A DNA stretch of 33,125 nucleotides, taken from a virus. Taxonomy: Duplodnaviria > Heunggongvirae > Uroviricota > Caudoviricetes. This document shows, one piece after another, positions 13,338-31,787 of the stretch. Position 1 is the stretch's first letter; each line of letters begins with the position of its first letter. The notes beneath the pieces were generated by a model. It worked only from the letters and a program-made list of their open reading frames with translations, did not search any database and was not told the DNA's origin. The stretch is taken from IMG/VR virus record IMGVR_UViG_2718218402_000003; one strand, given 5' to 3'. The position numbers were made by a program, and so were the translations under genes.

Positions 13338-13338
13338 G

Positions 13339-13980: not shown

Positions 13981-14007
13981 GATAAAATAAACCCGCCGAA
14001 GCGGGTT
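13981..14007 (-). terminator. Hairpin downstream of hokD (terminator / 3' fold-back element)
   Basis: AACCCGC-CGAA-GCGGGTT followed on the minus strand by a T-rich run; a second hairpin GCGAGGGA-tttct-CCCTCGC lies at about 14049-14069. Confidence 0.5.
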
Positions 14008-14075
14008 AAGTGCGGGTGCATTGAGGATGCCTGACACATCAGAGGTGGCGAGGGATTTCTCCCTCGCCTGGTCTC

Positions 14076-14231
14076 TTACTCCTCAGGTTCGTAAGCTGTG
14101 AAGACAGCGACCTCCGTCTGGCCGGTTCGGATTCGTACCTCGCAGAGGTCTTTCCTCGTTACCAGTGCCGTCACTATGACGGTTAAACAGATGACGATCA
14201 GGGCGATTAACATCGCCTTTTGCTGCTTCAT
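14076..14231 (-). CDS. hokD: Hok/Gef-family type I toxin (HokD/RelF-like)
   Basis: 51 aa MKQQKAMLIALIVICLTVIVTALVTRKDLCEVRIRTGQTEVAVFTAYEPEE; AAGGAGAAG Shine-Dalgarno before ATG 14231; the track ORF extends upstream in frame. Confidence 0.85.
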   Translation of the reverse strand: MKQQKAMLIALIVICLTVIVTALVTRKDLCEVRIRTGQTEVAVFTAYEPEE

Positions 14232-14906
14232 AGCCTGCTTCTCCTTGCCTTTCGGCACGTAAGAGGCTAACCTAGATTTGCCGTTCATAGATTGAGCCTC
14301 AGATTAATGTTAAGCGTCTTGCAGGACGCGTAATGTTAACTGGGGCTTTTCTCTATCTGCCGTTGGTGTTCATGCCTGAGACAGATAGCCTCAAGCACCC
14401 GCAGCCATTCTACTTAACTCCCGTCACCTCGCCAATATGAAATCAGTCAGAAAGGCGATCCATAAGAACAACAGCAAGGCAATAAATTGCCATTACAGCA
14501 GCAATAGCCAGCGCACATTTGAGAACCAGCACCACAACCTCCTGTATTGGACGTACACCAGTCCTGATAAATATGAGGCTGTCTCGTCAGTGATTCAATA
14601 CAACTATTGGGTATAGTTTCTGTGATTTTGTTCTGTAGAAATGGAACACAACAACCAGTCACCACCAGCACTTCTTTAAATACGCCAAGTCCGACGCAAG
14701 CTAACCTTCTAGGCCGCTTTGAGCGAAGAGCGGACGCTCGCATCTGTCCCAACACACTGAGGGCTTCACGAACACCTAGGTGTACTCGTCAACTGGGAAA
14801 AAGTCAGATTATCTGTAAGCGTACAGCCTGAACCGTCTGGTCAGAATCTGACGAATTAGACAAAGTGGTGTCCACCAAATAAGTAGTGGGAACCAAAGTA
14901 TCAGAT

Positions 14907-15287
14907 ATGCAGAAAAATGTGACTCCCGGCAGGCGAAAAGGCTGCCCTAATTATCCTCCCGAATTTAAACAGCAGCTCGTTGCTGCCTCCTGTGAACCCG
15001 GGATATCCATCTCAAAACTTGCTCTTGAAAATGGCATTAACGCCAATCTGTTGTTCAAATGGCGACAACAATGGCGCGAGGGAAAGCTGCTATTACCTTC
15101 TTCAGAGAGCCCCCAGCTACTTCCTGTGACTCTCGATGCAGCTGCCGAACAGCCAGAATCGCTCGCAGAGGACCCGGAAACCCTCAGTATCAGCTGTGAG
15201 GTAACGTTCCGGCACGGGACGCTCCGCTTCAATGGCAATGTCAGCGAAAAGCTCCTGACTCTGCTGATACAGGAACTGAAGCGATGA
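14907..15287 (+). CDS. IS66-family TnpA (orf1)
   Basis: ATG at 14907 (MQKNVTPGRRKG...); the track start at 14886 is a GTG. Confidence 0.8.
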   Translation: MQKNVTPGRRKGCPNYPPEFKQQLVAASCEPGISISKLALENGINANLLFKWRQQWREGKLLLPSSESPQLLPVTLDAAAEQPESLAEDPETLSISCEVTFRHGTLRFNGNVSEKLLTLLIQELKR

Positions 15288-15631
15288 TCCCGTTACCTTC
15301 CGGGACCAAAATTTGGCTGGTTGCCGGTATCACCGATATGAGAAATGGCTTCAACGGCCTGGCTGCGAAAGTACAAACGGCGCTGAAAGACGATCCCATG
15401 TCCGGCCATGTTTTCATTTTCCGGGGCCGCAGCGGCAGTCAGGTTAAACTGCTGTGGTCCACCGGTGACGGACTGTGCCTCCTGACCAAACGGCTGGAGC
15501 GTGGGCGCTTCGCCTGGCCGTCAGCCCGTGATGGCAAAGTGTTCCTTACGCAGGCGCAGCTGGCGATGCTGCTGGAAGGTATCGACTGGCGACAGCCTAA
15601 GCGGCTGCTGACCTCCCTGACCATGCTGTAA
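15284..15631 (+). CDS. IS66-family TnpB (orf2)
   Basis: 115 aa, overlapping tnpA stop; characteristic IS66 orf2. Confidence 0.85.
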
Positions 15632-15680
15632 ATCTCTTTATCCTGGTTGTCACAGAATAAGCCCGGTAAAATACGGGCTT

Positions 15681-17219
15681 ATGAACGACATCTCTTCTGA
15701 CGACATCTTCCTGCTGAAACAGCGCCTGGCCGAACAGGAAGCGCTGATCCACGCCCTGCAGGAAAAGCTGAGCAACCGGGAGCGCGAAATAGACCATCTG
15801 CAGGCGCAGCTGGATAAACTCCGCCGGATGAACTTCGGCAGTCGTTCCGAAAAAGTCTCCCGCCGTATCGCACAAATGGAAGCCGATCTGAACCGGCTTC
15901 AGAAAGAGAGCGATACGCTGACTGGTAGGGTGTATGACCCGGCAGTACAGCGTCCGTTGCGTCAGACCCGCACCCGTAAGCCGTTCCCTGAATCACTACC
16001 CCGTGACGAAAAGCGACTGTTGCCTGCGGCGCCGTGCTGCCCGAACTGCGGCGGTTCACTGAGCTATCTGGGCGAGGATACCGCCGAACAGCTGGAGTTG
16101 ATGCGTAGCGCCTTCCGGGTTATCCGGACGGTACGGGAAAAACATGCCTGTACTCAGTGCGATGCCATCGTGCAGGCACCTGCACCTTCGCGGCCCATCG
16201 AGCGGAGTATCGCCGGACCGGGGCTGCTGGCCCGCGTGCTGACCTCGAAGTATGCAGAGCACACCCCGCTGTATCGCCAGTCAGAAATATACGGCCGGCA
16301 AGGTGTGGAGCTGAGGCGTTCACTGCTGTCGGGCTGGGTGGATGCATGCTGCCGGCTGCTGTCTCCGCTGGAAGAGGCGCTTCATGGCTATGTCATGACT
16401 GACGGCAAACTCCATGCCGATGATACCCCGGTCCAGGTACTGCTGCCGGGTAATAAGAAGACGAAGACCGGGCGGTTGTGGGCGTATGTTCGTGATGACC
16501 GCAATGCAGGGTCAGCGTTGGCACCTGCAGTGTGGTTCGCTTACAGCCCGGACAGAAAAGGCATCCATCCGCAGACTCATCTTGCCTGCTTCAGCGGTGT
16601 GCTGCAAGCGGATGCGTACGCCGGGTTCAACGAGCTGTATCGCAATGGTGGGATAACGGAAGCTGCCTGCTGGGCTCATGCCCGCCGAAAGATCCACGAT
16701 GTGCACGTCCGCATCCCGTCAGCACTGACGGAAGAAGCCCTGGAGCAGATCGGTCAGTTGTACGCCATAGAGGCGGATATAAGGGGAATGCCGGCAGAGC
16801 AGCGGCTTGCTGAACGTCAGCGAAAAACGAAACCGTTGTTGAAATCCCTGGAAAGCTGGTTGCGTGAAAAGATGAAGACCCTGTCGCGACACTCAGAGTT
16901 GGCGAAGGCGTTCGCGTACGCACTTAACCAGTGGCCGGCACTGACGTACTATGCGAACGATGGCTGGGTGGAAATCGACAACAACATCGCTGAAAATGCC
17001 CTGCGGGCGGTCAGTCTGGGTCGTAAAAACTTCCTGTTCTTCGGCTCTGACCATGGTGGTGAGCGGGGAGCGCTACTGTACAGCCTGATCGGGACGTGCA
17101 AACTGAATGACGTGGATCCAGAAAGCTACCTTCGCCATGTGCTTGGCGTCATAGCAGACTGGCCGGTCAACCGGGTCAGCGAACTGCTTCCGTGGCGCAT
17201 AGCACTGCCAGCTGAATAA
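15681..17219 (+). CDS. IS66-family transposase TnpC
   Basis: 512 aa with N-terminal leucine zipper, CxxC...CxxC zinc finger and DDE region. Confidence 0.9.
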
Positions 17220-17280
17220 CACATCCCCGTCAATACGGCCCTCGCTGTACGCTTACGATTATCTGCGTAAGTTTCAGCGT

Positions 17281-17308
17281 AAAAATTGGGCACTATAAAA
17301 GTGCCCAA
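17281..17308 (-). terminator. Rho-independent terminator of the large NTPase gene
   Basis: TTGGGCAC-tataaaa-GTGCCCAA hairpin followed on the minus strand by TTTTT; 22 nt downstream of the stop at 17330. Confidence 0.55.
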
Positions 17309-17329
17309 ACTGTAGAAAAATACATAATG

Positions 17330-20300
17330 CTATGTATCTGAGCCAAACATAGAGCGCCGCCTTGTTATTTTATAATAAGTGGGATTTTCATTATCCACCT
17401 CAAAATCAGAGAAGAAGTGGTTATCTCTTAATGCTGTTAATAAACTTTGATTAGTTGAATCAACTTCAATTTTAGGTTTGCCTCGCCCCAAAATTTTACT
17501 GAACTCCGATAAACCAAGCAGATCAAGATACTCTTTGCAAGTCGTCTTACTCAAATCCTTACCCGGCAACAAAGCGATTAGCAGTGCTATTTTATTCTGC
17601 ATATTCAGTCCCTCTGCGACAAACAGGTTTTTTAGTAACGGTTCAGAAACATCATTAGGACTTGCTATCAATGCTGATATATCCTGTATTGCTCGACTCA
17701 AGATGAGCGACTGAGTAGAGGTTCCCCAAGTTTTATAAGATGACGTCAAGATTAGAAGTTCATCTGGTTTAAAATTATTTTCTAAAATATAGTCATTAAC
17801 GACCTGAGAGTAATTCTTACTATAAATAGCCAACGGAGTTTTAACAAACTCGAGTAGCTTAACTTTCAAATCATCATCAACTTTCCAAGAAAGTATTGAT
17901 ATAGCCTCATCCAAAATAAAGTTATCAATCGTCATTAATTCAACGTATGCCCTGATATTCTTATGAATATAATAGGAAAGTTGCTCTGAATAGTTATCTC
18001 GTATGAAATTAAGTGGCGCAACATTCATACGAATAATATTTTTATCCACTAATATTTTGAACTTATCACTCGCGATATTACTAGCGCTAAAGGATGTTTT
18101 ACAAATAATATTTAGTGAGCAAATTAATTTTTCATATTTATCATTTGATAAATCATTACAGATAACAATCGATTTAAATAATTTACCTTTAAGCTCGTTA
18201 TCAATATTAATATTTTGAAAATTCAGGTCTACATCAGTTCTATTGATAAATTCGATAAGTGAGTCATCCAGTCCATCAACATGTTCAAAATAAGAGACAA
18301 TATTTTCCTCAGAGCACACTGCTCTATCTTTATCCAACAAAGATGACCATAAAGATTCGCTCTCAACCTCACTCAGAGATGTCACGAAAGTTTGCAAAGC
18401 GTTTATATACTGGCCTTTTTGTTCATCAGATATTCCCTCATTATTAAGAACGGATAAAACAATGGATTCATCATCCACGATTGAACCATCACAACTAGAT
18501 AAAACCATATCCAGATAGTCCCTAATATGGTTATTAACATAACTAGCCAAGGGAGAATCAGGTTGTGACATCACTAGTGTATAGTTCTTATGGCGAATAT
18601 CATCTTCACTATTAAGCGTGTAAACCTTACTCAGCATTAAGGTCAGGTTGGAAAAATTAATATCATAAAGTGAATGCTGGTAAACCGCATCAAAGAGTAC
18701 TTTATTTGCGTTTTCAAATTTAATACTGACAAAAGAAACGTTAAGCAACTTAAAACCACTAATTAATTTGTCAACCTTCGGTTCTGATATTGCTAAATAA
18801 CCTGCCGAATCAGAGATGTAATCAGTCAGACAATCATCAATATTAATGGCCTCGATGGCGTCATTGGCAGAATAATAAAACGTGCCTATAGAGTAGAGTT
18901 TAACCCAATCAGCAGAAAATTCACTCTCTGTCAGCGCATAAGAAAAAAACTCAGGCCACTGTGTATTTAATCGATTAATGAAGACAGGCTGAGCCCTCTC
19001 AGTTTCAAAGTAACCACGAATAAACTCAACTCTTCTATCTTTTCTTAGTTGTTTGAATAAACGTTTTATTAAGTTTACCTGGGCTGGCGTTTGAAGCAGA
19101 TAAGCTAATAAATCAAAATTAAGCGCCTCTTCCTGTTCAAAATCCACTTCTCGAAGGCGGGCAACGACCAGCTTGGGGTTCTTGAGTTGATAAGTGAACT
19201 CTTTGCCTTTTTGATCGGTAATGCTGCGTAAAAACATCTTATCAATTCGACTCAGGCTATTTTCATAAAAATAGGTCATATAGTCGGTATAGGTTTCATC
19301 AATATAACCATCACGAATAAGGTATTTAAGCAAGTCAAAATACTCACTGCTTTTTATTTCATTAAAGTCTCTTTCCTCTCCAATTTCATTGGTATAGGTG
19401 AGTTTAAATATTTCATCAATGTTTTCTCTAGTTATTACTTCTTTAAGTCTTTTGTTTCTAGAATCAACCAAACTTTCTCTTGATCTTGATATAAGCTCAT
19501 TAATTTCTTCTATTTTACCATTAAATTTATTTTCAACACTTTCTTTTCTAGCCGCCCTTCTCTTTGCTATATCAGCTTTCTCAGCCTGATTATAGTGAGG
19601 ATGATTATTATATCTAGATAATTCCTTATCGTATATAGCATCAACCTCCTGACTAGAGTTGAGTATTTCATCATTGATTGCCTCAATCTCTTTTTTTCTA
19701 TCTCTAATATCTTTTTCTATTTTCTTTATTTCTTCAATAATAAGGTTGTCTTTTTCACTAAATATGGTATAAACCATACCTTGATTAAGTTGCAACTCAC
19801 TAAAATCTCTTGGGAAAATATTCTTATAGGCAATAATGGCCAACATTTTATTACAGTCAAGTTCTGTCGTGTTTAATTTGTTATAATAAATTTGAAATTC
19901 GTTATAAATATTCTTCAATATTCTCATATCATCAATATATAAAGACATCCCTTGTAGAAATCTTTCATTGAACAACTTGAGAATACCACCACCATCAAAA
20001 TGTGTGATAAACTGATCGTAAGAGTTAGAACTATCAACAACAGGAATAACTGGAATGATATAATCAAAGAATTTGGTTCTATCCTTCGAAATGAAGATAT
20101 CATCACGAAGCAAGTAAATAAAACGTAACGTCGATTTCTTGTGCCCTGCTGTGTCCCGTTGAATATTAACCAGTCTGTTAACCTCATGAAGACGTTCAAA
20201 GATGTTATTACTATTAAAACGGTCCATGTCTTCAAAAACAATGGCATCAGCATCAACGTTCTCGAAAAGGTACAATACTTCATTTAAATATCTATCGAAA

Positions 20301-20962
20301 TAAGACTCGTTACTTTCTTCAAAAATCTCTATTTCATTACCCTGTAAATTTATTTTCTTAAGAACATTACGATTCTTTTGGGTTTTTATTAACTTGTAAA
20401 TGAAAATACAAGATAGGATAGTACATATAAACCCACTAATTAAAAGCGTATCGTATTTAGTTGATAATGTAAGTAGTGTCTTTATATTACCTTCAGATAA
20501 AAGTGAAACAAACTTTTCCCACTTATTAAATAGCGTGATATGTAGTATCATAGCGATAAATAACACCGTAAAGATGGTGTTTATCACAATGTTGTTAGTT
20601 TTTATTTTTTTCTTTACTTTAAAATGTGTCTGGGGAATATCATCAGCATTAATTTGGTGAATTAACTGGTTAAGAACTTTACCTTCTAACGCGGTTTCAT
20701 TTATATCTTTACTTGGTTCATTAGTTTCAGCTTCCTCAATCGATCTGAAATGAGCAAGTGAGATATGAACAAACTTTATATTTGAATGACTTTTCTTATA
20801 GGATTCGATAAGACTACTTTTTCCTGCGCTATATTGCCCTGATATCGCAACATTTTTTAGATCGTTATTGGCAAAAACAAAATCTATCGCATTTTTATAT
20901 ACACCCAGCTCAACATCGCTGAACGGCGTTAACTTTTGAAATTTATAGCTATCATCACTCAT
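17330..20962 (-). CDS. Large (1210 aa) membrane-inserted P-loop NTPase, KAP/YobI-like; candidate stand-alone phage-defence or abortive-infection protein
   Basis: Walker A GQYSAGKS (aa 42-49, nt about 20816-20839), two predicted TM helices (aa about 125-145 and 172-192) between Walker A and Walker B IVFEDMD (aa 241-247); coiled-coil-like segment aa about 400-500; about 950 aa of unassigned C-terminal sequence; strongly AT-rich by eye; SD GGAAGGGA upstream; own terminator. CDS is certain, function is inferred. Confidence 0.6.
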   Translation of the reverse strand: MSDDSYKFQKLTPFSDVELGVYKNAIDFVFANNDLKNVAISGQYSAGKSSLIESYKKSHSNIKFVHISLAHFRSIEEAETNEPSKDINETALEGKVLNQLIHQINADDIPQTHFKVKKKIKTNNIVINTIFTVLFIAMILHITLFNKWEKFVSLLSEGNIKTLLTLSTKYDTLLISGFICTILSCIFIYKLIKTQKNRNVLKKINLQGNEIEIFEESNESYFDRYLNEVLYLFENVDADAIVFEDMDRFNSNNIFERLHEVNRLVNIQRDTAGHKKSTLRFIYLLRDDIFISKDRTKFFDYIIPVIPVVDSSNSYDQFITHFDGGGILKLFNERFLQGMSLYIDDMRILKNIYNEFQIYYNKLNTTELDCNKMLAIIAYKNIFPRDFSELQLNQGMVYTIFSEKDNLIIEEIKKIEKDIRDRKKEIEAINDEILNSSQEVDAIYDKELSRYNNHPHYNQAEKADIAKRRAARKESVENKFNGKIEEINELISRSRESLVDSRNKRLKEVITRENIDEIFKLTYTNEIGEERDFNEIKSSEYFDLLKYLIRDGYIDETYTDYMTYFYENSLSRIDKMFLRSITDQKGKEFTYQLKNPKLVVARLREVDFEQEEALNFDLLAYLLQTPAQVNLIKRLFKQLRKDRRVEFIRGYFETERAQPVFINRLNTQWPEFFSYALTESEFSADWVKLYSIGTFYYSANDAIEAINIDDCLTDYISDSAGYLAISEPKVDKLISGFKLLNVSFVSIKFENANKVLFDAVYQHSLYDINFSNLTLMLSKVYTLNSEDDIRHKNYTLVMSQPDSPLASYVNNHIRDYLDMVLSSCDGSIVDDESIVLSVLNNEGISDEQKGQYINALQTFVTSLSEVESESLWSSLLDKDRAVCSEENIVSYFEHVDGLDDSLIEFINRTDVDLNFQNINIDNELKGKLFKSIVICNDLSNDKYEKLICSLNIICKTSFSASNIASDKFKILVDKNIIRMNVAPLNFIRDNYSEQLSYYIHKNIRAYVELMTIDNFILDEAISILSWKVDDDLKVKLLEFVKTPLAIYSKNYSQVVNDYILENNFKPDELLILTSSYKTWGTSTQSLILSRAIQDISALIASPNDVSEPLLKNLFVAEGLNMQNKIALLIALLPGKDLSKTTCKEYLDLLGLSEFSKILGRGKPKIEVDSTNQSLLTALRDNHFFSDFEVDNENPTYYKITRRRSMFGSDT

Positions 20963-21361
20963 TGATATCCCTTCCCAATCTTCACCGAGAGAGCTGGCTT
21001 TCGGAGTTAATCAAACAAAATCATGCAGATAAAATTTCGCCTTATTATAGCAGACACAACTGCAAAGATTAGCTAAAGCCTCGTTGTTTTCTTCATCTAT
21101 CCCTATAATTTTACACTACAGTTAGCACTTACTATACCTGAAAGCTTTGCTCGTAAAGAGCACAATCGCAAGTCAGCAAAGCACGACTTTGCAATCGAGC
21201 GCCGCTAAAACAGTGCTGAATCGCTACGACTTAGGCAGCCATCTTATCGGTTGGCAGATAATTTCTAACTTCCGCTTCTGGCACAAAGCGGACAACCACG
21301 ATAGCTCTATCCTGTGCCACAAAATGTCAATTCACATCTTAACTAATGCATTTTAATCTCG

Positions 21362-21784
21362 TCACTTTAATAAATACCGAACATTCCCCTGATAAAACGA
21401 CAATATGCGCTGCATAACTTCGCTTTTACGACACTCAGTACAAATTATATTATGATGCCTGTCGTAACGACGTATTTCTCCATCAGGTAATGACCAGATA
21501 AGGTCCGGATCAACCGCAGATGGTTTCTTCAGCTTTGCCCTTGAGAGCTTTTTACGGGCATTTTGCCAGTCCTTACGCGCCTGTTCAGACGGGAATAACC
21601 CGTAACCAGAATTGTATACATCACCGCTGGCAACCAGCTCTCTCGCGAGAACGCTCATCAGATATCTTGTCGCACCTGTCTTGACTTCCAGTTGTCGTAA
21701 CGTCTCACGCCCACTCTGGCGTACGAGTTCAACAACCTGCCCTTTAATTTTTTCTCGCTCTTCTTGTGTAAAAACTTTTGCCAC
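21362..21784 (-). CDS. Hypothetical phage protein (140 aa)
   Basis: ORF downstream of the replication gene on the minus strand; basic C-terminus; no family recognised. Confidence 0.4.
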   Translation of the reverse strand: MAKVFTQEEREKIKGQVVELVRQSGRETLRQLEVKTGATRYLMSVLARELVASGDVYNSGYGLFPSEQARKDWQNARKKLSRAKLKKPSAVDPDLIWSLPDGEIRRYDRHHNIICTECRKSEVMQRILSFYQGNVRYLLK

Positions 21785-21824
21785 AAGACCTCCTGAAAAT
21801 TACCTCATGACCAGAAATTAACAC

Positions 21825-22814
21825 TTACCCCCTGAAGCCCGGCGGAATTTCGGTATCCGGCTCAGAAATATGATTCACACAACGCTGTACAGACGAACGC
21901 CCCAGGCGGATAACCAGTTCATCCCATTTTTCGCGAAGCTTTGACGGACTCATGATATTTTTTACCCAGAATGGATCCCGCTGCACCCGACCAAACATTT
22001 CACAAATTTGTCTGTGAGTTCTGCCATCCAGCATCCGCATTGTGCGCACGTCGTTGGCCCATGCGGTCCAGTTGGGTTCTTTCGGTCGCGAAATCTCGCC
22101 ATCATCGCTGGCGGCCTGCTCGTAAAGACTCACGATTCGCCCCCAGATCCACTGCGCACACGCCAAATCTTCCTGGCTGCCCCACTGGCGTTTTTTCGCA
22201 CTGAACACAACCGCGTCAGGGTGTCGGGTTAAAAAATCCTGTTCAACCGTCTGCGGGTCCGGTTGCGAAGCTTCCGGACGAGAAGTCTTTTTATTCTCTG
22301 TAGTAATCTCTGTTGTATTCTCTGTAGTAATCTCTGTTGTATTCTCTGTAAGATCATCAGGCCATTTTGACCCGATGACATTGAGTCGTTTTGAACCAAT
22401 GGAGCGTTTCATTTTGACCTCTTCCATCGTGTCATTTTGACCTGATGGAGCGGCGCATTTTAAACCGATGGATTCGCTCAATTTGCCACCATCTAAAAGC
22501 TCGCTCCCGTAGTTGATCGTGTAGAAATTGGTCATATCGCGCTTTGATTTATTGAGCTTTTCACAACGCAAAAGCCCCAGCGTTTTCAGACTTGCAAACG
22601 CGCGCTTTAACGTTGACTCTGACCAGAATGGGAACTGTTCCAGCCATTGTTCCGTTGTGTTATAAATCCAGCGAACACCATCACATTCCATGCCGGAGTT
22701 GGTATCTCTCAACCAGTAGTGCAGTTGTTGCAAAACAATGGCTTCGTTTAAGCCAATTTTCATTGCCAGCTGCGTGTTTATAACCAGTGGGCGTTCAGCA
22801 AAAAGAAGACTCAT
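21825..22814 (-). CDS. Phage replication initiation protein (replisome-organiser-like) with internal ori iterons
   Basis: HTH-like N-terminal domain (LAMKIGLNEAIVLQQLHYWL); tandem DNA repeats inside the ORF; position downstream of cro-like and cII-position genes. Start taken at the internal ATG 22814 to avoid overlapping the YdaT-like gene. Confidence 0.5.
   Translation of the reverse strand: MSLLFAERPLVINTQLAMKIGLNEAIVLQQLHYWLRDTNSGMECDGVRWIYNTTEQWLEQFPFWSESTLKRAFASLKTLGLLRCEKLNKSKRDMTNFYTINYGSELLDGGKLSESIGLKCAAPSGQNDTMEEVKMKRSIGSKRLNVIGSKWPDDLTENTTEITTENTTEITTENKKTSRPEASQPDPQTVEQDFLTRHPDAVVFSAKKRQWGSQEDLACAQWIWGRIVSLYEQAASDDGEISRPKEPNWTAWANDVRTMRMLDGRTHRQICEMFGRVQRDPFWVKNIMSPSKLREKWDELVIRLGRSSVQRCVNHISEPDTEIPPGFRG
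22293..22494. repeat. Iteron-like direct-repeat array (candidate origin of replication) within the replication gene
   Basis: 2.4 copies of the 24-bp unit ATTCTCTGTAGTAATCTCTGTTGT (22293-22351), then about 6 degenerate CATTTTGACC-N-GATGG-like repeats at roughly 23-24-bp spacing (22363-22494). Confidence 0.6.
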
Positions 22815-23316
22815 AATTCCATCCAGCTTTTTGTTGGTATTGCTGTCGATACGCAAGCTTGAAAGCAATTGCTTTTTCTATAAGTTCGTCAGTTTCACGA
22901 TCTACAACGGCAGGATCTGCAAAAAGCAGTCCGGATTCCACCACATCGCCATATTCTTTATTTAACCCGGCGATCATGTACGTAATACTTTTTCCATCAC
23001 TGATCTCACGATACAACCTGAAATCACTAATCCGGATAGCCTCCATAATCGCAGGCACTAGCGCCGTGAACTTTTCACGCTTATCCCTGGTGTCGATAGC
23101 CTTCCAGCGTTCGAATATCTTCACTCGATTAACGCCAAGCGCTCGCTGATCAACCGCGCCACCTTCATCTGTGACACGCTGAACATCGATGTTCGGGCGC
23201 TCTTTCAAAGCCCAGAATGCTTCAGTGATTAATATCGTCGCCTGCTCCTGTGTCATTCCTGGTCGACATATCCAGGCATCCAGAGCCTCACGAGCCTGTT
23301 CAGGAGTGATTTTCAT
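22795..23316 (-). CDS. YdaT-like protein (cII-position gene of Rac/Qin-type prophages)
   Basis: 173-aa ORF directly downstream of the cro-like dicC; pattern resembles Rac YdaT as recalled. Confidence 0.5.
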   Translation of the reverse strand: MKITPEQAREALDAWICRPGMTQEQATILITEAFWALKERPNIDVQRVTDEGGAVDQRALGVNRVKIFERWKAIDTRDKREKFTALVPAIMEAIRISDFRLYREISDGKSITYMIAGLNKEYGDVVESGLLFADPAVVDRETDELIEKAIAFKLAYRQQYQQKAGWNYESSFC

Positions 23317-23530
23317 TGTTCAACCGCCCCGCCCGCTTCGTCTTACGATATTCATCATAAACTTTGGGATCATACTGAAGCTCCCCGCCAGATGCCTCCT
23401 GTAGACGCATCGCGCGACCTTCGGGAACTAAATCCCCTTTCCAGCTATAAAGCGAAGCCAAACGAATACCTGCTGCTTGTGCAAGTTTTGTTTTTGAACC
23501 GAAATACAAAAGAGCGTCAGTTTTAAGCAT
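23300..23530 (-). CDS. dicC: Cro-like repressor DicC
   Basis: 76 aa MLKTDALLYFGSKTKLAQAAGI...; divergent from dicA. Confidence 0.85.
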   Translation of the reverse strand: MLKTDALLYFGSKTKLAQAAGIRLASLYSWKGDLVPEGRAMRLQEASGGELQYDPKVYDEYRKTKRAGRLNNENHS

Positions 23531-23544
23531 TTAAAACACCTTTA

Positions 23545-23564
23545 TTGTTAGTCATGACTAACAA
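23545..23564. promoter_or_regulatory. Perfect 20-bp palindrome TTGTTAGTCATGACTAACAA in the dicC-dicA divergent region (candidate operator)
   Basis: Exact dyad symmetry read from sequence; a related TTAGC-N4-GCTAA element lies at 23598-23611. Confidence 0.5.
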
Positions 23565-23613
23565 AATAGATGTTAACAAAAACATAGTCAATACGATTTA
23601 GCATTAGCTAACT

Positions 23614-24021
23614 ATGGAAACAAAAAATTTAACTATCGGCGAACGCATTAGGTATCGTCGGAAAAACCTCAAACACACCCAAAGGTCTCTTGCTAAAGCC
23701 CTGAAAATCTCCCATGTGTCTGTATCACAATGGGAACGGGATGATAGTGAACCTACAGGGAAGAACCTTTTTGCCCTCAGCAAAGTATTGCAATGCTCAC
23801 CAACATGGATTCTATTTGGCGATGAAGACAAGCAACCAACACCACCTGTTGAGAAGCCAGTTGCCTTATCCCCCAAAGAACTAGAGCTCCTTGAGCTGTT
23901 TAATGCACTGCCAGAATCAGAACAGGATACCCAGCTCGCCGAAATGCGAGCTCGAGTAAAAAACTTCAATAAACTCTTTGAAGAATTACTAAAAGCCCGT
24001 CAGCGGACAAATAAAAGATAA
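23614..24021 (+). CDS. dicA: cI-like immunity repressor DicA (XRE-family HTH)
   Basis: 135 aa METKNLTIGERIRYRRKNLKHTQRSLAKALKISHVSVSQWER...; matches DicA as recalled. Confidence 0.9.
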   Translation: METKNLTIGERIRYRRKNLKHTQRSLAKALKISHVSVSQWERDDSEPTGKNLFALSKVLQCSPTWILFGDEDKQPTPPVEKPVALSPKELELLELFNALPESEQDTQLAEMRARVKNFNKLFEELLKARQRTNKR

Positions 24022-24093
24022 CATCATCAATGAGTTATCTTTTACCACATCAATCATGTTAGCAATAACATACAAAATCACTTGACCTATATG

Positions 24094-24107
24094 TTAGCCA
24101 TGGCTAA
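24094..24107. promoter_or_regulatory. Palindrome TTAGCCATGGCTAA upstream of ydfA (candidate DicA operator at the dicB-operon promoter)
   Basis: Same TTAG-CATG-CTAA architecture as the core of the 23545 palindrome; imperfect dyad ATGTTA-N4-TAACAT at 24056-24071. Confidence 0.4.
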
Positions 24108-24187
24108 TCTTATTTGCATCAACACACCGCACGGTGTTCTCAGCAAACAGTTCCGCTACCCCGGCGTTAAGGGGAAATGAGGTCAAC

Positions 24188-24343
24188 ATGGATACTATCG
24201 ATCTTGGCAACAGCGAATCTCTGGTATGTGGCGTGTTCCCCAACCAGGACGGTACGTTCACCGCGATGACGTATACCAAAAGCAAAACGTTTAAAACCGA
24301 ATCTGGAGCGCGTCGCTGGCTGGAAAGAAATTCAGGTGGGTGA
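24188..24343 (+). CDS. ydfA: YdfA-like small protein (DUF1391)
   Basis: 51 aa MDTIDLGNSESLVCGVFPNQDG...; ATG at 24188 inside the track ORF. Confidence 0.7.
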   Translation: MDTIDLGNSESLVCGVFPNQDGTFTAMTYTKSKTFKTESGARRWLERNSGG

Positions 24344-24344
24344 T

Positions 24345-24473
24345 ATGGATTTCGACACAATCATGGAAAAGGCTTACGAAGAATACTTCGAAGGTCTTGC
24401 CGAAGGCGAAGAAGCTCTCAGCTTCAGCGAATTTAAACAGGCACTTTCCAGTTCGGCAAAATCTAACGGCTGA
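24345..24473 (+). CDS. ydfB: YdfB-like small protein (42 aa)
   Basis: Hand translation: MDFDTIMEKAYEEYFEGLAEGEEALSFSEFKQALSSSAKSNG; below the track length cutoff. Confidence 0.6.
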   Translation: MDFDTIMEKAYEEYFEGLAEGEEALSFSEFKQALSSSAKSNG

Positions 24474-24502
24474 TAAGCGAAACAGCACCGCGAGGAATCA
24501 GT

Positions 24503-24721
24503 ATGCAGAAACGAGAACCCGTCATCATCGCGCCAGACTATACCGATGATGAACTTTATGAGTGGATGCGCCAGAAAATTAATGCAGCGCAGGATCTGAA
24601 ATGGGCCAATGAAGCCAGGGCTAAGCAGGCTGAAAATCTGTCCGCTCTGGAGCAGGATATCACTAATCTGGAAAAAGCAGCGACATTAAGCATTGCCAGA
24701 ATGATTACATACCCGCGTTAA
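24503..24721 (+). CDS. ydfC: YdfC-like protein
   Basis: 72-aa ORF in the conserved position before dicF. Confidence 0.7.
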   Translation: MQKREPVIIAPDYTDDELYEWMRQKINAAQDLKWANEARAKQAENLSALEQDITNLEKAATLSIARMITYPR

Positions 24722-25061
24722 TAGCTAACCAACGAAGCTAAGGTTGGTAATTAAGGAGTTCTCCACGGATGAGGTGGAGTGCGTGCGCCGGACACGGGTG
24801 AGCATCCGGCACTGACAGTTTACTGAAAGGATATTTCCCTGAAAAGTCAGACCATAACGCGAAAGCGCACGGCGAGGTAGCTGGTTCATAGATAGCCTGT
24901 CGTTAAATTTTCGTCGACCGTGCGCTTCCGGTTGTGGCAATCCGCGAAATGGCGCGGCGGTAAGTATGGCGGGGTTATTCCTTCCCCGTTGAGGACACCG
25001 GGTTGTCAGGTTGACCATACGCTTAAGTGACAACCCCGCTGCAACGCCCTCTGTTATCAAT

Positions 25062-25124
25062 TTTCTGGTGACGTTTGGCGGTATCAGTTTTACTCCGTGA
25101 CTGCTCTGCCGCCCTTTTTAAAGT
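25062..25124 (+). ncRNA. dicF: DicF small regulatory RNA (ftsZ-targeting) with intrinsic terminator
   Basis: TTTCTGGTGACGTTTGGCGGTATCAGTTTTACTCCGTGACTGCTCTGCCGCCC followed by TTTTT; matches DicF as recalled; between ydfC and dicB. Confidence 0.8.
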
Positions 25125-25288
25125 GAATTTTGTGATGCGGTGAATGCGGCTGAGCGCACGCGGAACAGTTAAAACCAAAAACAGTGTTATGGGTGGATTC
25201 TCTGTATCCGGCGTTAATTGTTAACTGGTTAACGTCACCTGGAGGCACCAGGCACTGCATCACAAAATTCATTGTTGAGGACGCGATA

Positions 25289-25477
25289 ATGAAAACGTTA
25301 TTACCAAACGTTAATACGTCTGAAGGTTGTTTTGAAATTGGTGTCACTATCAGTAACCCAGTATTTACTGAAGATGCCATTAACAAGAGAAAACAAGAAC
25401 GGGAGCTATTAAATAAAATATGCATTGTTTCAATGCTGGCTCGTTTACGTCTGATGCCAAAAGGATGTGCACAATGA
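25289..25477 (+). CDS. dicB: Cell-division inhibitor DicB
   Basis: 62 aa MKTLLPNVNTSEGCFEIGVTISNPVF...; ATG at 25289 within the track ORF. Confidence 0.85.
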   Translation: MKTLLPNVNTSEGCFEIGVTISNPVFTEDAINKRKQERELLNKICIVSMLARLRLMPKGCAQ

Positions 25478-25665
25478 ATTCAGCATTTGTGCTTGTTCTG
25501 ACAGTTTTTCTTGTTTCCGGAGAGCCAGTTGATATTGCAGTCAGTGTTCACAGGACAATGCAGTAGTGTATGACTGCAGCAACCGAACAGAAAATTCCCG
25601 GTAACTGTTACCCGGTCGATAAAGTTATTCACCAGGATAATATCGAAATCCCGGCAGGTCTTTAA
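25474..25665 (+). pseudogene. ydfD: ydfD-like lysis gene with in-frame TAG at codon 31
   Basis: MNSAFVLVLTVFLVSGEPVDIAVSVHRTMQ-TAG(25564-25566)-CMTAATEQKIPGNCYPVDKVIHQDNIEIPAGL; overlaps the dicB stop (ATGA). Confidence 0.55.
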
Positions 25666-27116
25666 AACAGTTCCGTAATAAATATCCGGTTTCATTCTTA
25701 TATGCCAGCAATGGCAGGGATTTGTTCATCCTTAAATCTGTCATGAGGTTAAAACAAATGAGTAAAGTCTTTATTTGCGCCGCTATTCCTGACGAACTGG
25801 CAACAAGGGAAGAAGGCGCTGTGGCTGTAGCCACAGCCATTGAAGCTGGCGACGAACGCCGTGCTCGAGCAAAATTTCACTGGCAATTCCTGGAACATTA
25901 TCCGGCTGCTCAGGACTGCGCTTATAAATTTATTGTCTGCGAGGATAAACCTGGCATACCCCGCCCTGCCCTCGATTCATGGGATGCTGAATATATGCAG
26001 GAAAACCGCTGGGATGAGGAGTCTGCTTCTTTTGTCCCGGTTGAGACTGAATCCGATCCGATGAACGTCACTTTTGACAAGCTGGCCCCTGAAGTACAGA
26101 ACGCTGTCATGGTTAAGTTCGACACATGTGAAAAAATCACCGTTGATATGGTTATTAGCGCACAGGAATTGTTGCAGGAAGACATGGCAACATTCGACGG
26201 ACATATCGTTGAAGCGTTGATGAAAATGCCAGAAGTTAACGCCATGTATCCGGAGCTTAAGTTGCACGCCATTGGGTGGGTTAAGCATAAATGTATTCCT
26301 GGTGCTAAATGGCCCGAAATTCAGGCAGAGATGCGCATCTGGAAAAAACGTCGCGAAGGTGAACGCAAGGAAACCGGAAAATACACGTCTGTTGTTGATC
26401 TCGCCCGCGCCAGAGCCAATCAACAGTACACTGAAAATTCAACAGGAAAAATCAGCCCGGTCATTGCTGCCATTCATCGCGAATACAAGCAGACATGGAA
26501 AACACTGGATGACGAACTGGCCTACGCTCTCTGGCCTGGTGATGTGGATGCTGGAAACATTGACGGCAGCATCCATCGCTGGGCAAAAAAAGAAGTTATC
26601 GACAACGACCGCGAAGACTGGAAGCGTATCTCGGCATCAATGCGCAAACAGCCTGATGCCCTTCGCTACGACCGCCAAACTATTTTTGGCCTTGTCCGTG
26701 AGCGTCCGATCGACATTCACAAAGATCCCGTAGCACTGAACAAATATATCTGCGAATACCTGACGACAAAGGGCGTGTTTGAGAATGAAGAAACAGACCT
26801 GAGCACTGTTGATGTTCTCCAGTCATCAGAAACACAAACTGATGCAGTGGAAACTGAGGTATCTGATATCCCAAAAAATGAAACCGCGCCGGAAGCTGAA
26901 CCATCTGTAGAGCGTGAGGGGCCGTTCTATTTCCTCTTCGCAGATAAGGACGGAGAAAAATACGGTCGCGCAAACAAACTTTCTGGTCTGGATAAGGCAC
27001 TGGCTGCTGGCGCCACTGAAATCACAAAAGAAGAATATTTTGCCCGAAAAAATGGCACATACTGAACCGCCCCGGGAATCCTGGAGACTAAACTCCCTGA
27101 GAAAGAGGTAAACAGG

Positions 27117-27443
27117 ATGACTAAAAATACACGTTTTTCCCCCGAGGTCCGTCAACGGGCAGTTCGTATGGTTCTGGAAAGTCAGGGCGAATATGACTCA
27201 CAATGGGCGGCAATTTGTTCCATTGCCCCAAAGATTGGCTGTACGCCAGAGACTCTGCGAGTGTGGGTTCGTCAGCATGAACGGGATACCAGGAGTGGTG
27301 ATAGTGGACTCACCACCGCTGAACGTCAGCGTCTGAAAGAGCTGGAACGTGAAAATCGTGAACTGCGCCGCAGTAACGATATCCTTCGCCAGGCTTCCGC
27401 TTATTTTGCGAAGGCGGAGTTCGACCGCCTCTGGAAAAAATAA
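27117..27443 (+). CDS. IS629-like OrfA
   Basis: 108 aa [22 protein letters not shown]... Confidence 0.85.
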
Positions 27444-28330
27444 TGCCACTGCTGGATAAGCTGCGTGAGCAGTACGGGGTCGGACCGGTATGCAGTGAAC
27501 TGCATATTGCCCCGTCAACGTATTACCACTGTCAGCAACAGCGACATCATCCTGATAAACGTAGTGCCCGTGCGCAGCGCGATGACTGGCTGAAGAGAGA
27601 GATACAGCGCGTATACGATGAAAATCATCAGGTGTACGGTGTGCGTAAAGTCTGGCGCCAGTTGTTACGCGAAGGTATCAGGGTGGCCAGATGTACAGTG
27701 GCGCGCCTCATGGCGGTTATGGGACTTGCCGGTGTTCTCCGGGGTAAAAAGGTCCGTACTACCGTCAGCCGGAAAGCCGTTTCCGCAGGCGACCGCGTAA
27801 ACCGTCAGTTCGTGGCAGAACGTCCTGACCAGCTGTGGGTGGCTGATTTTACTTACGTCAGCACATGGCAGGGCTTCGTCTATGTGGCGTTCATCATTGA
27901 TGTGTTTGCCGGATGCATCGTGGGGTGGCGAGTCTCATCGTCTATGGAAACGACATTCGTGCTGGATGCACTGGAGCAGGCGTTGTGGGCCCGTCGGCCG
28001 TCCGGCACAGTCCATCACAGTGATAAAGGTTCTCAGTATGTATCACTGGCCTATACGGAGCGACTAAAAGAAGCAAAACTGCTGGCATCAACAGGGAGTA
28101 CAGGTGACTCGTATGACAACGCGATGGCGGAGAGCATCAATGGTCTTTACAAAGCGGAGGTAATACACCGTAAGAGCTGGAAAAACCGTGCAGAAGTGGA
28201 ACTGGCCACACTCACGTGGGTGGACTGGTATAACAATCGACGATTGCTGGGAAGGCTGGGTCATATCCCTCCGGCAGAAGCAGAAAAAGCTTATTATGCT
28301 TCCATCAGAAACGATGATCTGGCAGCCTGA
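27443..28330 (+). CDS. IS629-like OrfB transposase (DDE)
   Basis: 295 aa in the -1 frame relative to orfA (TAATG overlap). Confidence 0.9.
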   Translation: MPLLDKLREQYGVGPVCSELHIAPSTYYHCQQQRHHPDKRSARAQRDDWLKREIQRVYDENHQVYGVRKVWRQLLREGIRVARCTVARLMAVMGLAGVLRGKKVRTTVSRKAVSAGDRVNRQFVAERPDQLWVADFTYVSTWQGFVYVAFIIDVFAGCIVGWRVSSSMETTFVLDALEQALWARRPSGTVHHSDKGSQYVSLAYTERLKEAKLLASTGSTGDSYDNAMAESINGLYKAEVIHRKSWKNRAEVELATLTWVDWYNNRRLLGRLGHIPPAEAEKAYYASIRNDDLAA

Positions 28331-29614
28331 GTTCACAGATAAAACACTCTCCAGGAAAACCGGGGCGGTTCATACACGGGCTTACCGCAAAATGTAGATA
28401 CCGCTGAAGATTCAGAACAACCAGAGCCGATAAAAGTTACCGCTGACGAAGTAAACAAAATTATGCAGGCAGCCAATATCAGCCAGCCTGACGCCGATAA
28501 GTTGCTTGCTGCATCACGTGGTGAATTTGTTGAAGGGATTAGTGACCCGAATGATCCGAAATGGGTTAAGGGGATCCAGACCCGCGATTCTGTGAACCAG
28601 AACCAGCATGAATCGGAACGGAACTACCAAAAAGCGGAACAAAACAGTCCAAATGCGTTACAAAACGAGCCAGAAACGAAACAGCCTGAACCAGTGGCGC
28701 AACAGGAAGTGGAAAAAGTCTGCACCGCCTGCGGTCAGACCGGCGGCGGCAACTGCCCTGATTGTGGCGCGGTGATGGGCGACGCAACATACCAAGAAAC
28801 ATTCGATGAAGAGTATCAGGTTGAAGTTCAGGAAGATGATCCGGAGGAAATGGAAGGCGCTGAACATCCACACAAGGAGAACACTGGCGGCAATCAGCAT
28901 CACAATAGCGATAATGAAACTGGCGAGACGGCAGATCACCCAATTAAGGTGAACGGTCATCACGAAATCACATCCACCAGCAGGACGTGTGACCATCTAA
29001 TGATCGACCTTGAAACCATGGGAAAAAATCCTGATGCCCCGATCATCTCAATAGGTGCAATATTTTTCGATCCGCAAACCGGAGATATGGGACCGGAATT
29101 TAGTAAGACTATCGATCTGGAAACTGCTGGCGGAGTCATTGATCGGGACACCATTAAATGGTGGCTTAAGCAATCACGCGAAGCGCAATCTGCCATTATG
29201 ACCGATGAAATCCCGTTAGATGATGCACTGTTACAATTGCGGGAATTTATCGACGAAAACTCCGGTAAATTTTTTGTTCAGGTTTGGGGAAATGGAGCCA
29301 ACTTCGACAACACGATTTTGCGCCGTTCATACGAACGGCAGGGGATCCCCTGCCCGTGGCGTTACTACAACGATCGCGATGTACGCACAATCGTTGAGCT
29401 GGGGAAAGCCATAGACTTCGATGCCAGAACGGCTATTCCATTCGAAGGTGAGCGCCATAATGCACTTGATGACGCCCGTTACCAGGCAAAATACGTTTCA
29501 GTTATCTGGCAAAAACTGATCCCGAGTCAGGCTGATTCTTAATGTTCAACTGTCGCCGGTTGTGACTGGTATTCTGCAACCGGCGCTCGTCTGATGTAAG
29601 AGATAAAGAAATCG

Positions 29615-29905
29615 ATGAGCGAAGTAATCATGATTGTCTCTCCCGGCAAATGGGTATCCGAAGAGCAGTTAATTGCGCTGAAAGGAATAAAAAAAGGTAC
29701 GTTAAAAAAGGCCCGGGAAAAATCGTTTATGGAAGGAAGGGAATATAAGCATGTCGCTCATGACGGTATGCCATGGGATAACAGTCCATGCTTTTACAAC
29801 CTGGAAGAAATTGATCGCTGGATTGAGCGCCAGGCATCAGCGAGACCAAGAGTAACCGGCTCATTTAAACCGTCTGGTCTGTTTCCTCCGGCTCTACAAA
29901 AATAA
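29615..29905 (+). CDS. Excisionase-like protein (putative Xis)
   Basis: 96-aa ORF between the exonuclease and int; assignment by position and size only; its 3' end abuts an IS remnant. Confidence 0.4.
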   Translation: MSEVIMIVSPGKWVSEEQLIALKGIKKGTLKKAREKSFMEGREYKHVAHDGMPWDNSPCFYNLEEIDRWIERQASARPRVTGSFKPSGLFPPALQK

Positions 29906-30582
29906 TGTCCATCATTTTTAATGGACACTATCGTATGAAACACCGGACCTGGATCACTGAAGCTTTACGTCTTCACTTTGAAGAACATTTACCCCGGGTT
30001 GTGGCCGGGCGTCGCCTGGGTGTACCAAAATCAACAGTTTGTAGTATGTTCGTGCGCTTTCGGAGAGCTGGCCTTTCGTGGCCTTTGCCCGCAGGCATGT
30101 CGGAGCAGGAACTTGATGCCTGCCTTTACGGACAATTTTCCACGGTACCAGTCGTACGTCCTGAAAGCACCGTTATATCCGAAGCCCCCGTGGTAAAAAA
30201 ACGTCCCCGGCGGCCCAACTTCCCTTATGAGTTTAAAATCGCCTTAGTGGAGCAGTCACTGCAGCCCGGAGCCTGTGTGGCGCAGATCGCCCGGGAAAAC
30301 GGAATCAACGATAACCTGCTCTTCAACTGGCGCCATCAATACCGGAAAGGTGGCCTGCTGCCTTCCGGAAAAAATATGCCGGCACTGCTTCCCGTGACGT
30401 TAACGCCGGAGCCGGATAATAAAATCCCGGCCCCCGCACAGGAACCAGAGCAGATAAATACACCGTCCGACAGTCTGTGTTGTGAGCTGATTCTGCCGGC
30501 CGGAACTCTCAGGCTTAAAGGTAAACTGACGCCGGCGTTATTACAGACACTTATCCGCGAAATGAAAGGGAGCAGCCACTGA
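29905..30582 (+). CDS. Chimeric ORF: unidentified HTH-like N-terminus fused to an IS66-family TnpA homologue
   Basis: C-terminal part (from about aa 95: [20 protein letters not shown]...[16 protein letters not shown]...) parallels TnpA at 14907-15287; N-terminal part ([11 protein letters not shown]...) does not. Confidence 0.45.
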
Positions 30583-31787
30583 TGATATCTCTCCCTGCCG
30601 GTTCTCTGGGATGTGATGTGTCAGAGCAACTGGAGCTTATCAGCAGCGCCTTTAAGGTTATCGAAACACAACGTCCGAAACTGGCCTGTTGCCGGTGCGA
30701 CCATATCGTGCAGGCACCGGTGCCTTCAAAACCCATTGCACGCAGTTATGCCGGAGCGGGGCTCCTGGCCCATGTCGTCACCGGAAAATATGCAGACCAT
30801 CTGCCGTTATACCGCCAGTCAGAGATATACCGCCGTCAGGGTGTGGAGCTGAGCCGTGCCACACTGGGGCGCTGGACTGGTGCCGTTGCTGAACTACTGG
30901 AGCCGCTGTATGACGTCCTGCGCCAGTATGTGCTGATGCCCGGTAAAGTCCATGCTGATGATATCCCCGTCCCGGTCCAGGAGCCGGGCAGCGGTAAAAC
31001 CCGGACAGCCCGGCTGTGGGTCTACGTCCGTGATGACCGTAACGCCGGTTCACAGATGCCCCCGGCGGTCTGGTTCGCGTACAGTCCGGACCGGAAAGGT
31101 ATCCATCCACAAAATCACCTGGCCGGTTACAGCGGTGTGCTTCAGGCCGATGCTTACGGTGGTTACCGGGCGTTATACGAATCCGGCAGAATAACGGAAG
31201 CCGCGTGTATGGCTCATGCCCGGAGAAAAATCCACGATGTGCATGCAAGAGCGCCCACCGACATCACCACGGAAGCCCTGCAGCGTATCGGTGAACTGTA
31301 TGCCATCGAGGCAGAGGTCCGGGGCTGTTCAGCAGAACAGCGTCTGGCGGCAAGAAAAACCAGAGCCGCGCCACTGATGCAGTCACTGTATGACTGGATA
31401 CAGCAACAGATGAAAACACTGTCGCGTCACTCAGATACGGCAAAAGCGTTCGCATACCTGCTGAAACAGTGGGATGCACTGAACGTGTACTGCAGTAATG
31501 GCTGGGTGGAAATCGACAACAACATCGCAGAGAACGCCTTACGGGGAGTGGCCGTAGGCCGGAAAAACTGGATGTTCGCGGGTTCCGACAGCGGTGGTGA
31601 ACATGCGGCGGTGTTGTACTCGCTGATCGGCACATGCCGTCTGAACAATGTGGAGCCAGAAAAGTGGCTGCGCTACGTCATTGAACATATCCAGGACTGG
31701 CCGGCAAACCGGGTACGCGATCTGTTGCCCTGGAAAGTTGATCTGAGCTCTCAGTAAATATCAATACGGTTCTGACGAGCCGCTTAC
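30140..31787 (+). mobile_element. Defective IS66-family element (internal deletion; left end degenerate)
   Basis: Right IR ...CAATACGGTTCTGACGAGCCGCTTAC ending 31787; left-IR-like sequence only partially recognisable around 30136-30170; tnpB and the 5' third of tnpC are absent. Left boundary is approximate. Confidence 0.55.
30582..31757 (+). CDS. N-terminally truncated IS66-family transposase (tnpB-start/tnpC fusion)
   Basis: 391 aa; MISLPAGS resembles the TnpB start MIPLPSGT; from [16 protein letters not shown] it aligns to TnpC residues about 128-512 of the intact copy. Confidence 0.8.

Follow-up and report, generated by a model that had tools for sequence, protein, structure and literature searches.

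Does the array of short repeats inside the replication initiator gene of this prophage serve as its replication origin? The initial annotation of the window (the whole stretch of viral DNA analysed here, 33,125 nucleotides) had proposed a candidate origin of the lambda type at this place, and the sequence analysis supports this interpretation through the conservation of the repeats at the DNA level and their co-inheritance with the N-terminal domain of the initiator. We consider it probable, from sequence comparison, that positions 22291-22495 are the replication origin of a lambdoid replicon, located within the linker-coding part of its own initiator gene. The arrangement of an origin within an initiator gene is known, as in lambda; what is new is its presence in an uncharacterised initiator family.

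Genomic context of the initiator gene

The 33-kb window is an E. coli lambdoid prophage of the Qin type (DicA/DicC), with the O gene in the early right operon. The prophage annotation was carried over piecewise. The features that bear on the question are the following.

5934-6961: lysis genes
10095-11353: IS3 insertion
14815-17256: IS66-family insertion
21362-21784, minus strand: DUF977/LygF (Ren-like) gene, the next gene after O
21825-22814, minus strand: O-like initiator gene, complete, 329 aa, intact ORF
22795-23316, minus strand: cII-like/YdaT-family gene (phrog_163)
23300-23530, minus strand: dicC, P22_Cro family
23563-23591, minus strand: pR-like sigma-70 promoter, TTGACT-17-TATTTT, from a consensus scan only
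23614-24021, plus strand: dicA, cI-like
27063-28378: IS3-family insertion, splitting the exonuclease gene

The gene order (dicA, pR-like promoter, dicC/cro, cII-like gene, O) places the initiator in the early-right-operon location of lambda-type origins, and the pR-like promoter is directed through dicC/cro, the cII-like gene and O towards the repeat array. The initiator matches PHROG 391 ("replication initiation O-like", E 6e-97). Its start is most likely the ATG at 22814 (329 aa) rather than the TTG at 22868, since an identical copy appears in RefSeq as a CDS of 990 bp. No P/DnaC-type helicase-loader gene was found directly downstream of O in the window, nor after O in the phages mEp460, HannyBb and PhiR42_1. 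An O157 variant has a DnaC-like ATPase gene at the loader position after O.

Of 5426 complete E. coli genomes, 1748 carry the O gene at a coverage of at least 80%, and only seven E. coli records have at least 99% identity to the copy of the window. It is 100% identical in E. coli ECO2947, where the neighbouring genes differ from those of the window. No complete genome was found to cover at least 80% of positions 12000-30000, and the window is thus mosaic relative to the RefSeq genomes listed.

Two series of repeats in the linker-coding region

Two different elements were mapped between the parts of the gene that encode the N- and C-terminal domains.

22291-22350, minus strand: five CAGAGAWTAC 12-mers, a proposed DNA-unwinding element, including an exact 24-bp duplication
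22363-22495, minus strand: iteron array, six 17-mers on the coding strand, consensus TCCATCnGGTCAAAATG
22479-22495, 22456-22472, 22433-22449, 22410-22426, 22387-22403 and 22363-22379: the six iterons in coding order (plus-strand coordinates)

The initial annotation had described a single array at 22293-22494, composed of 2.4 exact copies of a 24-bp unit and about six degenerate repeats at 23-24 bp. Both components were recovered: Tandem Repeats Finder gives 2.5 copies of a period of 24 at 22292-22350 with 100% matches, and the degenerate repeats have plus-strand starts at 22363, 22387, 22410, 22433, 22456 and 22479. The iterons are therefore real and extend to 22495, but the 24-bp unit is not part of the iteron series. 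The TTENTTEI and IGSK motifs reported at the protein level are also there, the translation containing LTENTTEITTENTTEITTENKK, TENTTEITTEN, SIGSKR and VIGSKW.

The iterons are spaced by 23, 23, 23, 23 and 24 bp in the coding direction, and the array corresponds to residues 107-151 of the 329 of the initiator. With up to three mismatches, the consensus of the initial annotation (CATTTTGACCNGATGG) has four matches in the array and three elsewhere in the 33 kb (both strands); the expected total is 1.16, and seven matches were reached in none of 100 shuffles. The exact 10-mer core GGTCAAAATG occurs three times in the window, always within the array, with 0.08 occurrences expected. The information content of the repeat unit is highest at GGTCAAAnTG. 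The core is a half-palindrome around an A-tract, and the iterons are weak, partial dyads (GGTCA-AAA-TGAcc) that are clear in two to three of the six sites.

Conservation of the repeats as DNA

The six iterons start at codon offsets 1, 0, 2, 1, 0 and 0, so that all three frames are used, and they encode, in coding order, the peptides LDGGKL, SIGLKC, PSGQND, EEVKM, SIGSKR and VIGSKW. Third-position identity between the window and seven distant homologues is 0.77-0.82 in the array, as against 0.41-0.52 in the N-domain (Fisher p from 1.8e-3 to 4.5e-6), while amino-acid identity to the same seven homologues is 0.57-0.66 in the array, below the 0.73-0.76 of the N-domain. Similarly, pairwise identity at the first, second and third codon positions among ten enterobacterial homologues is 0.87, 0.94 and 0.57 in the N-domain, and flat in the array (0.85, 0.88 and 0.83). 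The use of three reading frames, the third-position conservation and the lower peptide identity together argue that the iterons are held as a DNA element. Judged from these comparisons, the 23-bp repeats are an element conserved as DNA and not as protein.

These data bear on the explanation that the repeats are a low-complexity protein linker (TTE, IGSK) that arose by slippage and has no DNA function, which we regard as extremely improbable. A 23-bp period that sets one DNA motif in three frames gives different peptides, conservation does not drop at third codon positions relative to the other two, and it is lower for the peptide than for the DNA; for the iterons, a role as protein linker only is largely refuted. 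The 12-mer block is where this explanation finds its points, as the 24-bp unit is an exact and recent duplication, the 12-mers are in frame, their number varies from two to five, and the ori-encoded central domain of pSK41 is a dispensable linker (PMC5703833). The enterobacterial 12-mers, with their 12-bp period, stay in one frame, so that protein-level selection on the TTE linker is possible there from local data alone. However, the equivalents of the 12-mers in Moraxella are spaced by 11 bp and read in three frames, and those in Bacillus sp. WMMC1349 are spaced by 11 or 12 bp and read in two frames. At that distance, the 12-mers thus appear to be conserved as DNA too.

A putative unwinding element adjacent to the iterons

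The candidate for the adjacent A+T-rich unwinding element envisaged in the initial annotation is the 24-bp repeat block itself (22291-22350). Each 24-bp unit joins a CAGAGAATAC and a CAGAGATTAC 12-mer, and Tandem Repeats Finder also detects the 12-bp sub-period in the same block (4.7 copies). The block is approximately 69% A+T (GC 0.33 at 22291-22350), and its coding strand is 69% purine. Within the gene, duplex stability is lowest for the 40-mer that starts at 22291 (dG -45.5 kcal/mol); the window mean for 40-mers is -55.2 +/- 5.2 kcal/mol, which puts this 40-mer at about the 96th percentile. These values support the assignment of the block as an A+T-rich putative unwinding element that adjoins the iterons and is distinct from them. 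By eye, no convincing matches to DnaA boxes or IHF sites were seen in the 12-mers.

The number of 12-mers in the 67 viral contigs listed is three in 59, two in five, four in two and five in one, and six iterons are present in 57 of the 67, so that the modal form has six iterons and three 12-mers. The phages mEp460, HannyBb and PhiR42_1 have the same gene minus one 24-bp unit, hence three 12-mers. Since three 12-mers are usual in both the viral contigs and the deposited phages, the exact 24-bp repeat of the window is a rare, recent duplication.

The proximity of the two elements also bears on the explanation that the repeats are regulatory sites at which the initiator binds for autorepression, copy control or incompatibility (by titration or handcuffing), with initiation taking place elsewhere in the phage genome. 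Plasmid iterons do serve in copy control as well (PMC5043065), but the array is always directly followed by the least stable, A+T-rich repeats, an arrangement that is needed for unwinding. Iterons with an adjoining A+T-rich block are the arrangement of ori-lambda and of pSK41 (PMC5043065, PMC5703833). Moreover, no second cluster of either the iteron or the 12-mer motif was found in the window outside 22291-22495, only isolated one-mismatch matches. A purely regulatory role is, in our judgement, very unlikely.

Domains of the initiator protein

The protein that would act at this site has the following domains and tail.

22497-22814, minus strand: N-terminal domain, 106 aa, predicted winged helix, presumed to bind the iterons
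21909-22289, minus strand: C-terminal domain, homologous to the C-terminal half of lambda O
21828-21893, minus strand: C-terminal 22 residues (VQRCVNHISEPDTEIPPGFRG), DnaT-like from NF002770 and PDB matches

In lambda, this half of O makes contact with the helicase loader. The corresponding half of the initiator aligns with lambda O by BLASTP with 35% identity over 156 aa (E 2e-27), and the alignment begins within the linker. The description of the gene as a lambda-O-like initiator with repeats in its linker thus agrees with the PHROG 391 match, with the homology to the C-terminal half of lambda O and with the position of the repeats, which is that of the lambda repeats. The likeness holds for the C-domain and the gene position but not for the N-domain, which is not of the lambda O type: neither the full protein nor the isolated N-domain matches PF04492 (Phage_rep_O), even at a maximum E-value of 10, and lambda O itself matches this family at 5.7e-36.

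The fold of the N-domain is predicted to be closest to that of the staphylococcal RepA_N N-terminal domain, that is, to be of the RepA_N/DnaD-NTD winged-helix type. Sequence identity to 4pta is 12%, and the N-domain does not match Pfam RepA_N (PF06970) at a maximum E-value of 10. No RepA_N Pfam domain was found among the 120 sequence relatives listed; DUF4222, in one relative, is the single precomputed Pfam domain among them, and the other 119 have none.

The tail is matched by the DnaT profile of NCBIfam (NF002770) at profile positions 158-179 of 179, as well as by the DnaT PDB entries 2ru8, 6aep and 9zbt. In the available text of a 2026 preprimosome paper, the C-terminal domain of DnaT docks on PriA, and no role is stated there for the extreme DnaT C-terminus (last 17 residues) (PMC13377028). 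The resemblance of the tail to the end of DnaT, together with the docking of DnaT on PriA, suggests that this O-like initiator may recruit the host restart or loading machinery directly.

Inheritance and exchange of the module

Near-identical O-ori modules are found in the deposited complete phage genomes mEp460, HannyBb and PhiR42_1. The initiator of the window is 94% identical to that of mEp460, with the first 143 aa identical and an 8-aa (24-bp) insertion as the main difference, and all six iterons match those of mEp460. No published binding, autonomous replication or origin description for any member of the module was found in the literature; papers on mEp460 mention it for prophage typing only, with no origin description, and the iteron strings (GGTCAAAATG and variants), searched in full text, matched unrelated primers only.

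In the Klebsiella phage ST147-VIM1phi7.2, the N-domain, iterons and 12-mers are kept and the C-domain is replaced by Phg_2220_C. The same replacement is found in prophages of Citrobacter, Raoultella, Enterobacter and Izhakiella, and the lambda-O-like C-domain is joined to the same N-domain and origin in E. coli and Trabulsiella. In addition, many E. coli megablast matches stop at query position 467, which is position 22291 of the window, the outer edge of the 12-mers. By sequence comparison, the N-domain, iterons and 12-mers thus seem to be co-inherited as one unit, with C-domains exchanged directly after the 12-mers.

The order N-domain, 22-24-bp iterons and CAGAGAnTAC repeats was observed in Citrobacter, Raoultella, Enterobacter, Izhakiella, Trabulsiella, Morganella, Moraxella and Bacillus. 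It is partly kept in Peribacillus (12-mers and one clear iteron only) and in Deferribacterales (iteron-like repeats, with 12-mers in one of three loci). When viral contigs were scanned for pairs of GTCAAAATG sites at a distance of 13-15 bp, at least 120 loci were recovered. Among the matches listed, the N-domain is encoded directly upstream in 83 of 120 loci, at least two 12-mers lie downstream in 67 of 120, and all 67 of these have the N-domain.

The core GTCAAAATG is also found in arrays behind other, sequence-unrelated winged-helix N-domains, and in many of the remaining loci the array is located 300-500 nt inside such an ORF, with A+T-rich short-period repeats of other kinds after it. The 37 viral arrays without the N-domain were considered as missed homologues and rejected as such: an HMM search at maximum sensitivity gave only marginal matches, mostly to the linker, and these arrays have other HTH_36-like winged-helix N-domains. 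As the core is common to other initiators, it does not set specificity alone, and the flanking bases must do so. For the same reason, the argument from co-variation of N-domain and iterons depends on the flanking bases and the O157 case.

Comparison with known origins

In lambdoid phages the origin is found midway along O and comprises iterons and an A+T-rich tract, with four iterons in lambda and six in Stx phages (PMC7466680, PMC5043065), and binding of lambda O opens the adjacent 40-bp A+T-rich region (PMC5043065, PMC7466680). The window shares much of this organisation. Its repeats occupy the corresponding part of O, a gene that follows cro and cII in the early right operon, and the C-terminal domain is homologous to that of lambda O. 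The iteron spacing is 23-24 bp as compared with 20, 24 and 23 bp in lambda, and their number is six, as in the Stx phages 933W and P27. In both cases an A+T-rich region with a purine-rich coding strand comes after the iterons along the direction of O transcription (74% A+T and 67% purine in lambda, 69% and 69% here), and the protein alignment sets TENTTEITTEN opposite the TKDTITKEKRKDY encoded by the A+T-rich region of lambda.

The window also differs from lambda. The N-terminal DNA-binding domain is not Phage_rep_O (PF04492), no P gene follows O, and the initiator carries the DnaT-like tail. The A+T-rich part is built of conserved CAGAGAWTAC 11-12-mers. The iteron sequence is unrelated and weakly palindromic, whereas the iterons of lambda are near-perfect 19-bp inverted repeats. 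Lambda iterons bind O dimers. DNA homology to ori-lambda was also considered: the local alignment of the lambda A+T-rich region with the 12-mers scores 22, and shuffled sequences score 17.9 +/- 2.2 (maximum 25). This is not significant, and no DNA homology to ori-lambda is claimed.

The second point of comparison is the RepA_N family. In pSK41, the N-terminal domain of RepA_N binds Rep boxes located centrally within rep, the ori-encoded central part is a dispensable linker and the C-terminal domain is host-specific; in the natural chimera pPR9, the N-domain and the origin have been swapped for the PF13730 type (PMC5703833). Iterons of RepA_N replicons take the form of inverted repeats that converge at a poly-A tract (PMC7145576). 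The window resembles this family in the central location of the repeats within the initiator gene, in the succession of a winged-helix N-domain of about 110-120 aa, an origin-encoded linker and an exchangeable C-domain. The iterons may also share the half-palindromes that meet at an A-tract (GGTCA-AAA-TGACC-like in the window): the core GGTCAAAATG(ACC) fits the RepA_N iteron pattern in some copies of the window, which are degenerate, and the pattern fits clearly in related viral-contig arrays (GGTCAAAATGACC). In contrast to RepA_N, the N-domain has no Pfam RepA_N sequence match (12% identity to 4pta), the C-domain is lambda-O-like, and this is a phage replicon of a Gram-negative host under pR/cro control and not under antisense-RNA control.

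Finally, A+T-rich 13-mers are a common origin element (PMC5043065). Like the oriC 13-mers, the 12-mers are usually three short direct repeats that form the least stable segment and adjoin initiator-binding sites; they differ in that the CAGAGAWTAC sequence is unrelated and inside a coding region, and in that melting is only predicted here. In its proposed working, the replicon of the window resembles the lambda and RepA_N paradigms; by sequence it belongs fully to neither.

Proposed mechanism and state of the probable origin in this prophage

In the mechanism that we propose, transcription from the pR-like promoter would express dicC/cro, the cII-like gene and the O-like initiator and would pass through the origin. 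The N-terminal winged-helix domain of the initiator would then bind the six iterons to form an O-some-like nucleoprotein complex, and stress in this complex would melt the adjoining 12-mer block, which flanks the iterons on the side where ori-lambda has its 40-bp A+T-rich region. The lambda-O-like C-domain and the DnaT-like tail would bring in the host helicase-loading machinery. We infer in this way the binding of the N-domain to the iterons, the melting of the 12-mers, the recruitment of the helicase and the activity in the prophage. Counted against the origin reading were the weak iteron dyads, the absent loader gene, the two extra 12-mers and the interruption of the prophage by IS elements.

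The initial annotation had seen here a potentially functional ori in a prophage that still has its immunity and lysis genes. The dicA/dicC and lysis genes are indeed present. For the prophage as a whole the claim does not hold up as well, with at least three IS insertions, one of them in the exonuclease gene, and "potentially functional" therefore fits the ori-O module and not the whole prophage.

The module could also be an origin by descent that is inactive in this prophage, because of the 24-bp duplication, the absent loader gene or general decay. We regard this as somewhat unlikely. The O gene forms an intact ORF, with the first 143 residues and all six iterons as in mEp460; the prophage does carry the IS insertions at 10095-11353, 14815-17256 and 27063-28378, the last in the exonuclease gene. 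The form with five 12-mers is rare (one of the 67 viral contigs listed, and seven E. coli records at 99% identity or more), but natural variants with two, four and five 12-mers are found in viral contigs. In the available text of PMC6022878, the ori- mutations of lambda include small in-frame deletions, so spacing can matter. As to the loader gene, it is likewise absent from the deposited complete phage genomes.

A further and more speculative proposal, which we put forward as tentative and rather unlikely, is that the CAGAGAWTAC 11-12-mers are a sequence-specific single-strand or unwinding element for the initiator or a host factor, with a role like that of the oriC 13-mers or DnaA-trios, and that initiators with a DnaT-like tail and no phage loader turn to the host PriA/PriB/DnaT-DnaB/DnaC restart machinery. 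If this is true, helicase recruitment by a DnaT-like tail would add a route that has not been described in lambdoid phages. Experiments would be best directed at the conserved 12-mer element and the DnaT-like tail, and the segment from pR to the end of O is a compact candidate mini-replicon.

Significance for lambdoid phages

The O-ori module is common, being carried by many E. coli genomes and by deposited complete phage genomes. Knowledge of its origin would tell which cryptic Qin-type prophages can still replicate on induction, and would define an incompatibility and specificity determinant of these phages. The module also points to a possibly loader-independent recruitment of the host helicase through the DnaT-like tail. 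More generally, initiators of the lambda and RepA_N types follow one modular plan, in which a winged-helix domain is joined, through a linker encoded by its own origin, to an exchangeable recruitment domain.

C-terminal tail of the initiator and helicase loading

The O-like initiator ends in a 22-residue stretch, VQRCVNHISEPDTEIPPGFRG, that matches the very C-terminus of host DnaT (NF002770; PDB 2ru8, 6aep and 9zbt).

21828-21893, minus strand, DnaT-like C-terminal tail of the O-like initiator

No P/DnaC-like loader gene was found after O in the window or in mEp460, HannyBb or PhiR42_1, deposited phage genomes with near-identical O-ori modules. A DnaC-like ATPase gene is present after O in an O157 prophage that shares the C-domain of the window initiator.

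Cargo and insertions

Between the LygF (DUF977, Ren-like) gene and an IS66-family element, the DNA is GC-poor and contains a gene for a YobI-like P-loop NTPase (1210 aa; PF20693, E 8e-123). The cargo at this spot differs in other strains, with SMEK-domain and methyltransferase genes found there in E. coli ECO2947, which has an identical O gene. The NTPase gene is probably prophage defence or moron cargo. Insertions were called by reference to related Qin-type prophages.

17330-20962, minus strand, YobI-like P-loop NTPase gene
10095-11353, IS3 insertion
14815-17256, insertion of the IS66-family element
27063-28378, IS3-family insertion splitting the RecE-like exonuclease gene
29851-31788, uncharacterised insert of ~1.9 kb between the excisionase and integrase genes, with ORFs at 29905-30582 and 30582-31757

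Sequences beside the 12-mers and related arrays

By eye, a short inverted repeat, TCCGGAAGCTTCGCAACCGGA, which includes the palindrome GAAGCTTC, was seen just downstream of the 12-mers in E. coli (22250-22290, minus strand); its equivalent in a Klebsiella phage (L007), also just downstream of the 12-mers, is GGTTGCGCTGCAACC. In lambda, too, a sequence with dyad symmetry lies on the right-hand side of the A+T-rich region.

Relatives of ~785 aa from Deferribacterales and Proteobacteria MAGs (L030, L031 and L032) carry two tandem N-domain copies, followed by an iteron-like array, TCAGTGCAnAnTGACC.

Arrays with the GTCAAAATG core, often GGTCAAAATGACC, were found in viral contigs including L038, L062, L070, L092, L142 and L148. 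They sit 300-500 nt inside ORFs whose N-terminal winged-helix domains have no detectable sequence relation to that of the window initiator, and are followed by other A+T-rich short-period repeats, such as AATACTAATAATAATAC. The iteron core seems to be common to phage initiators of a far broader superfamily.
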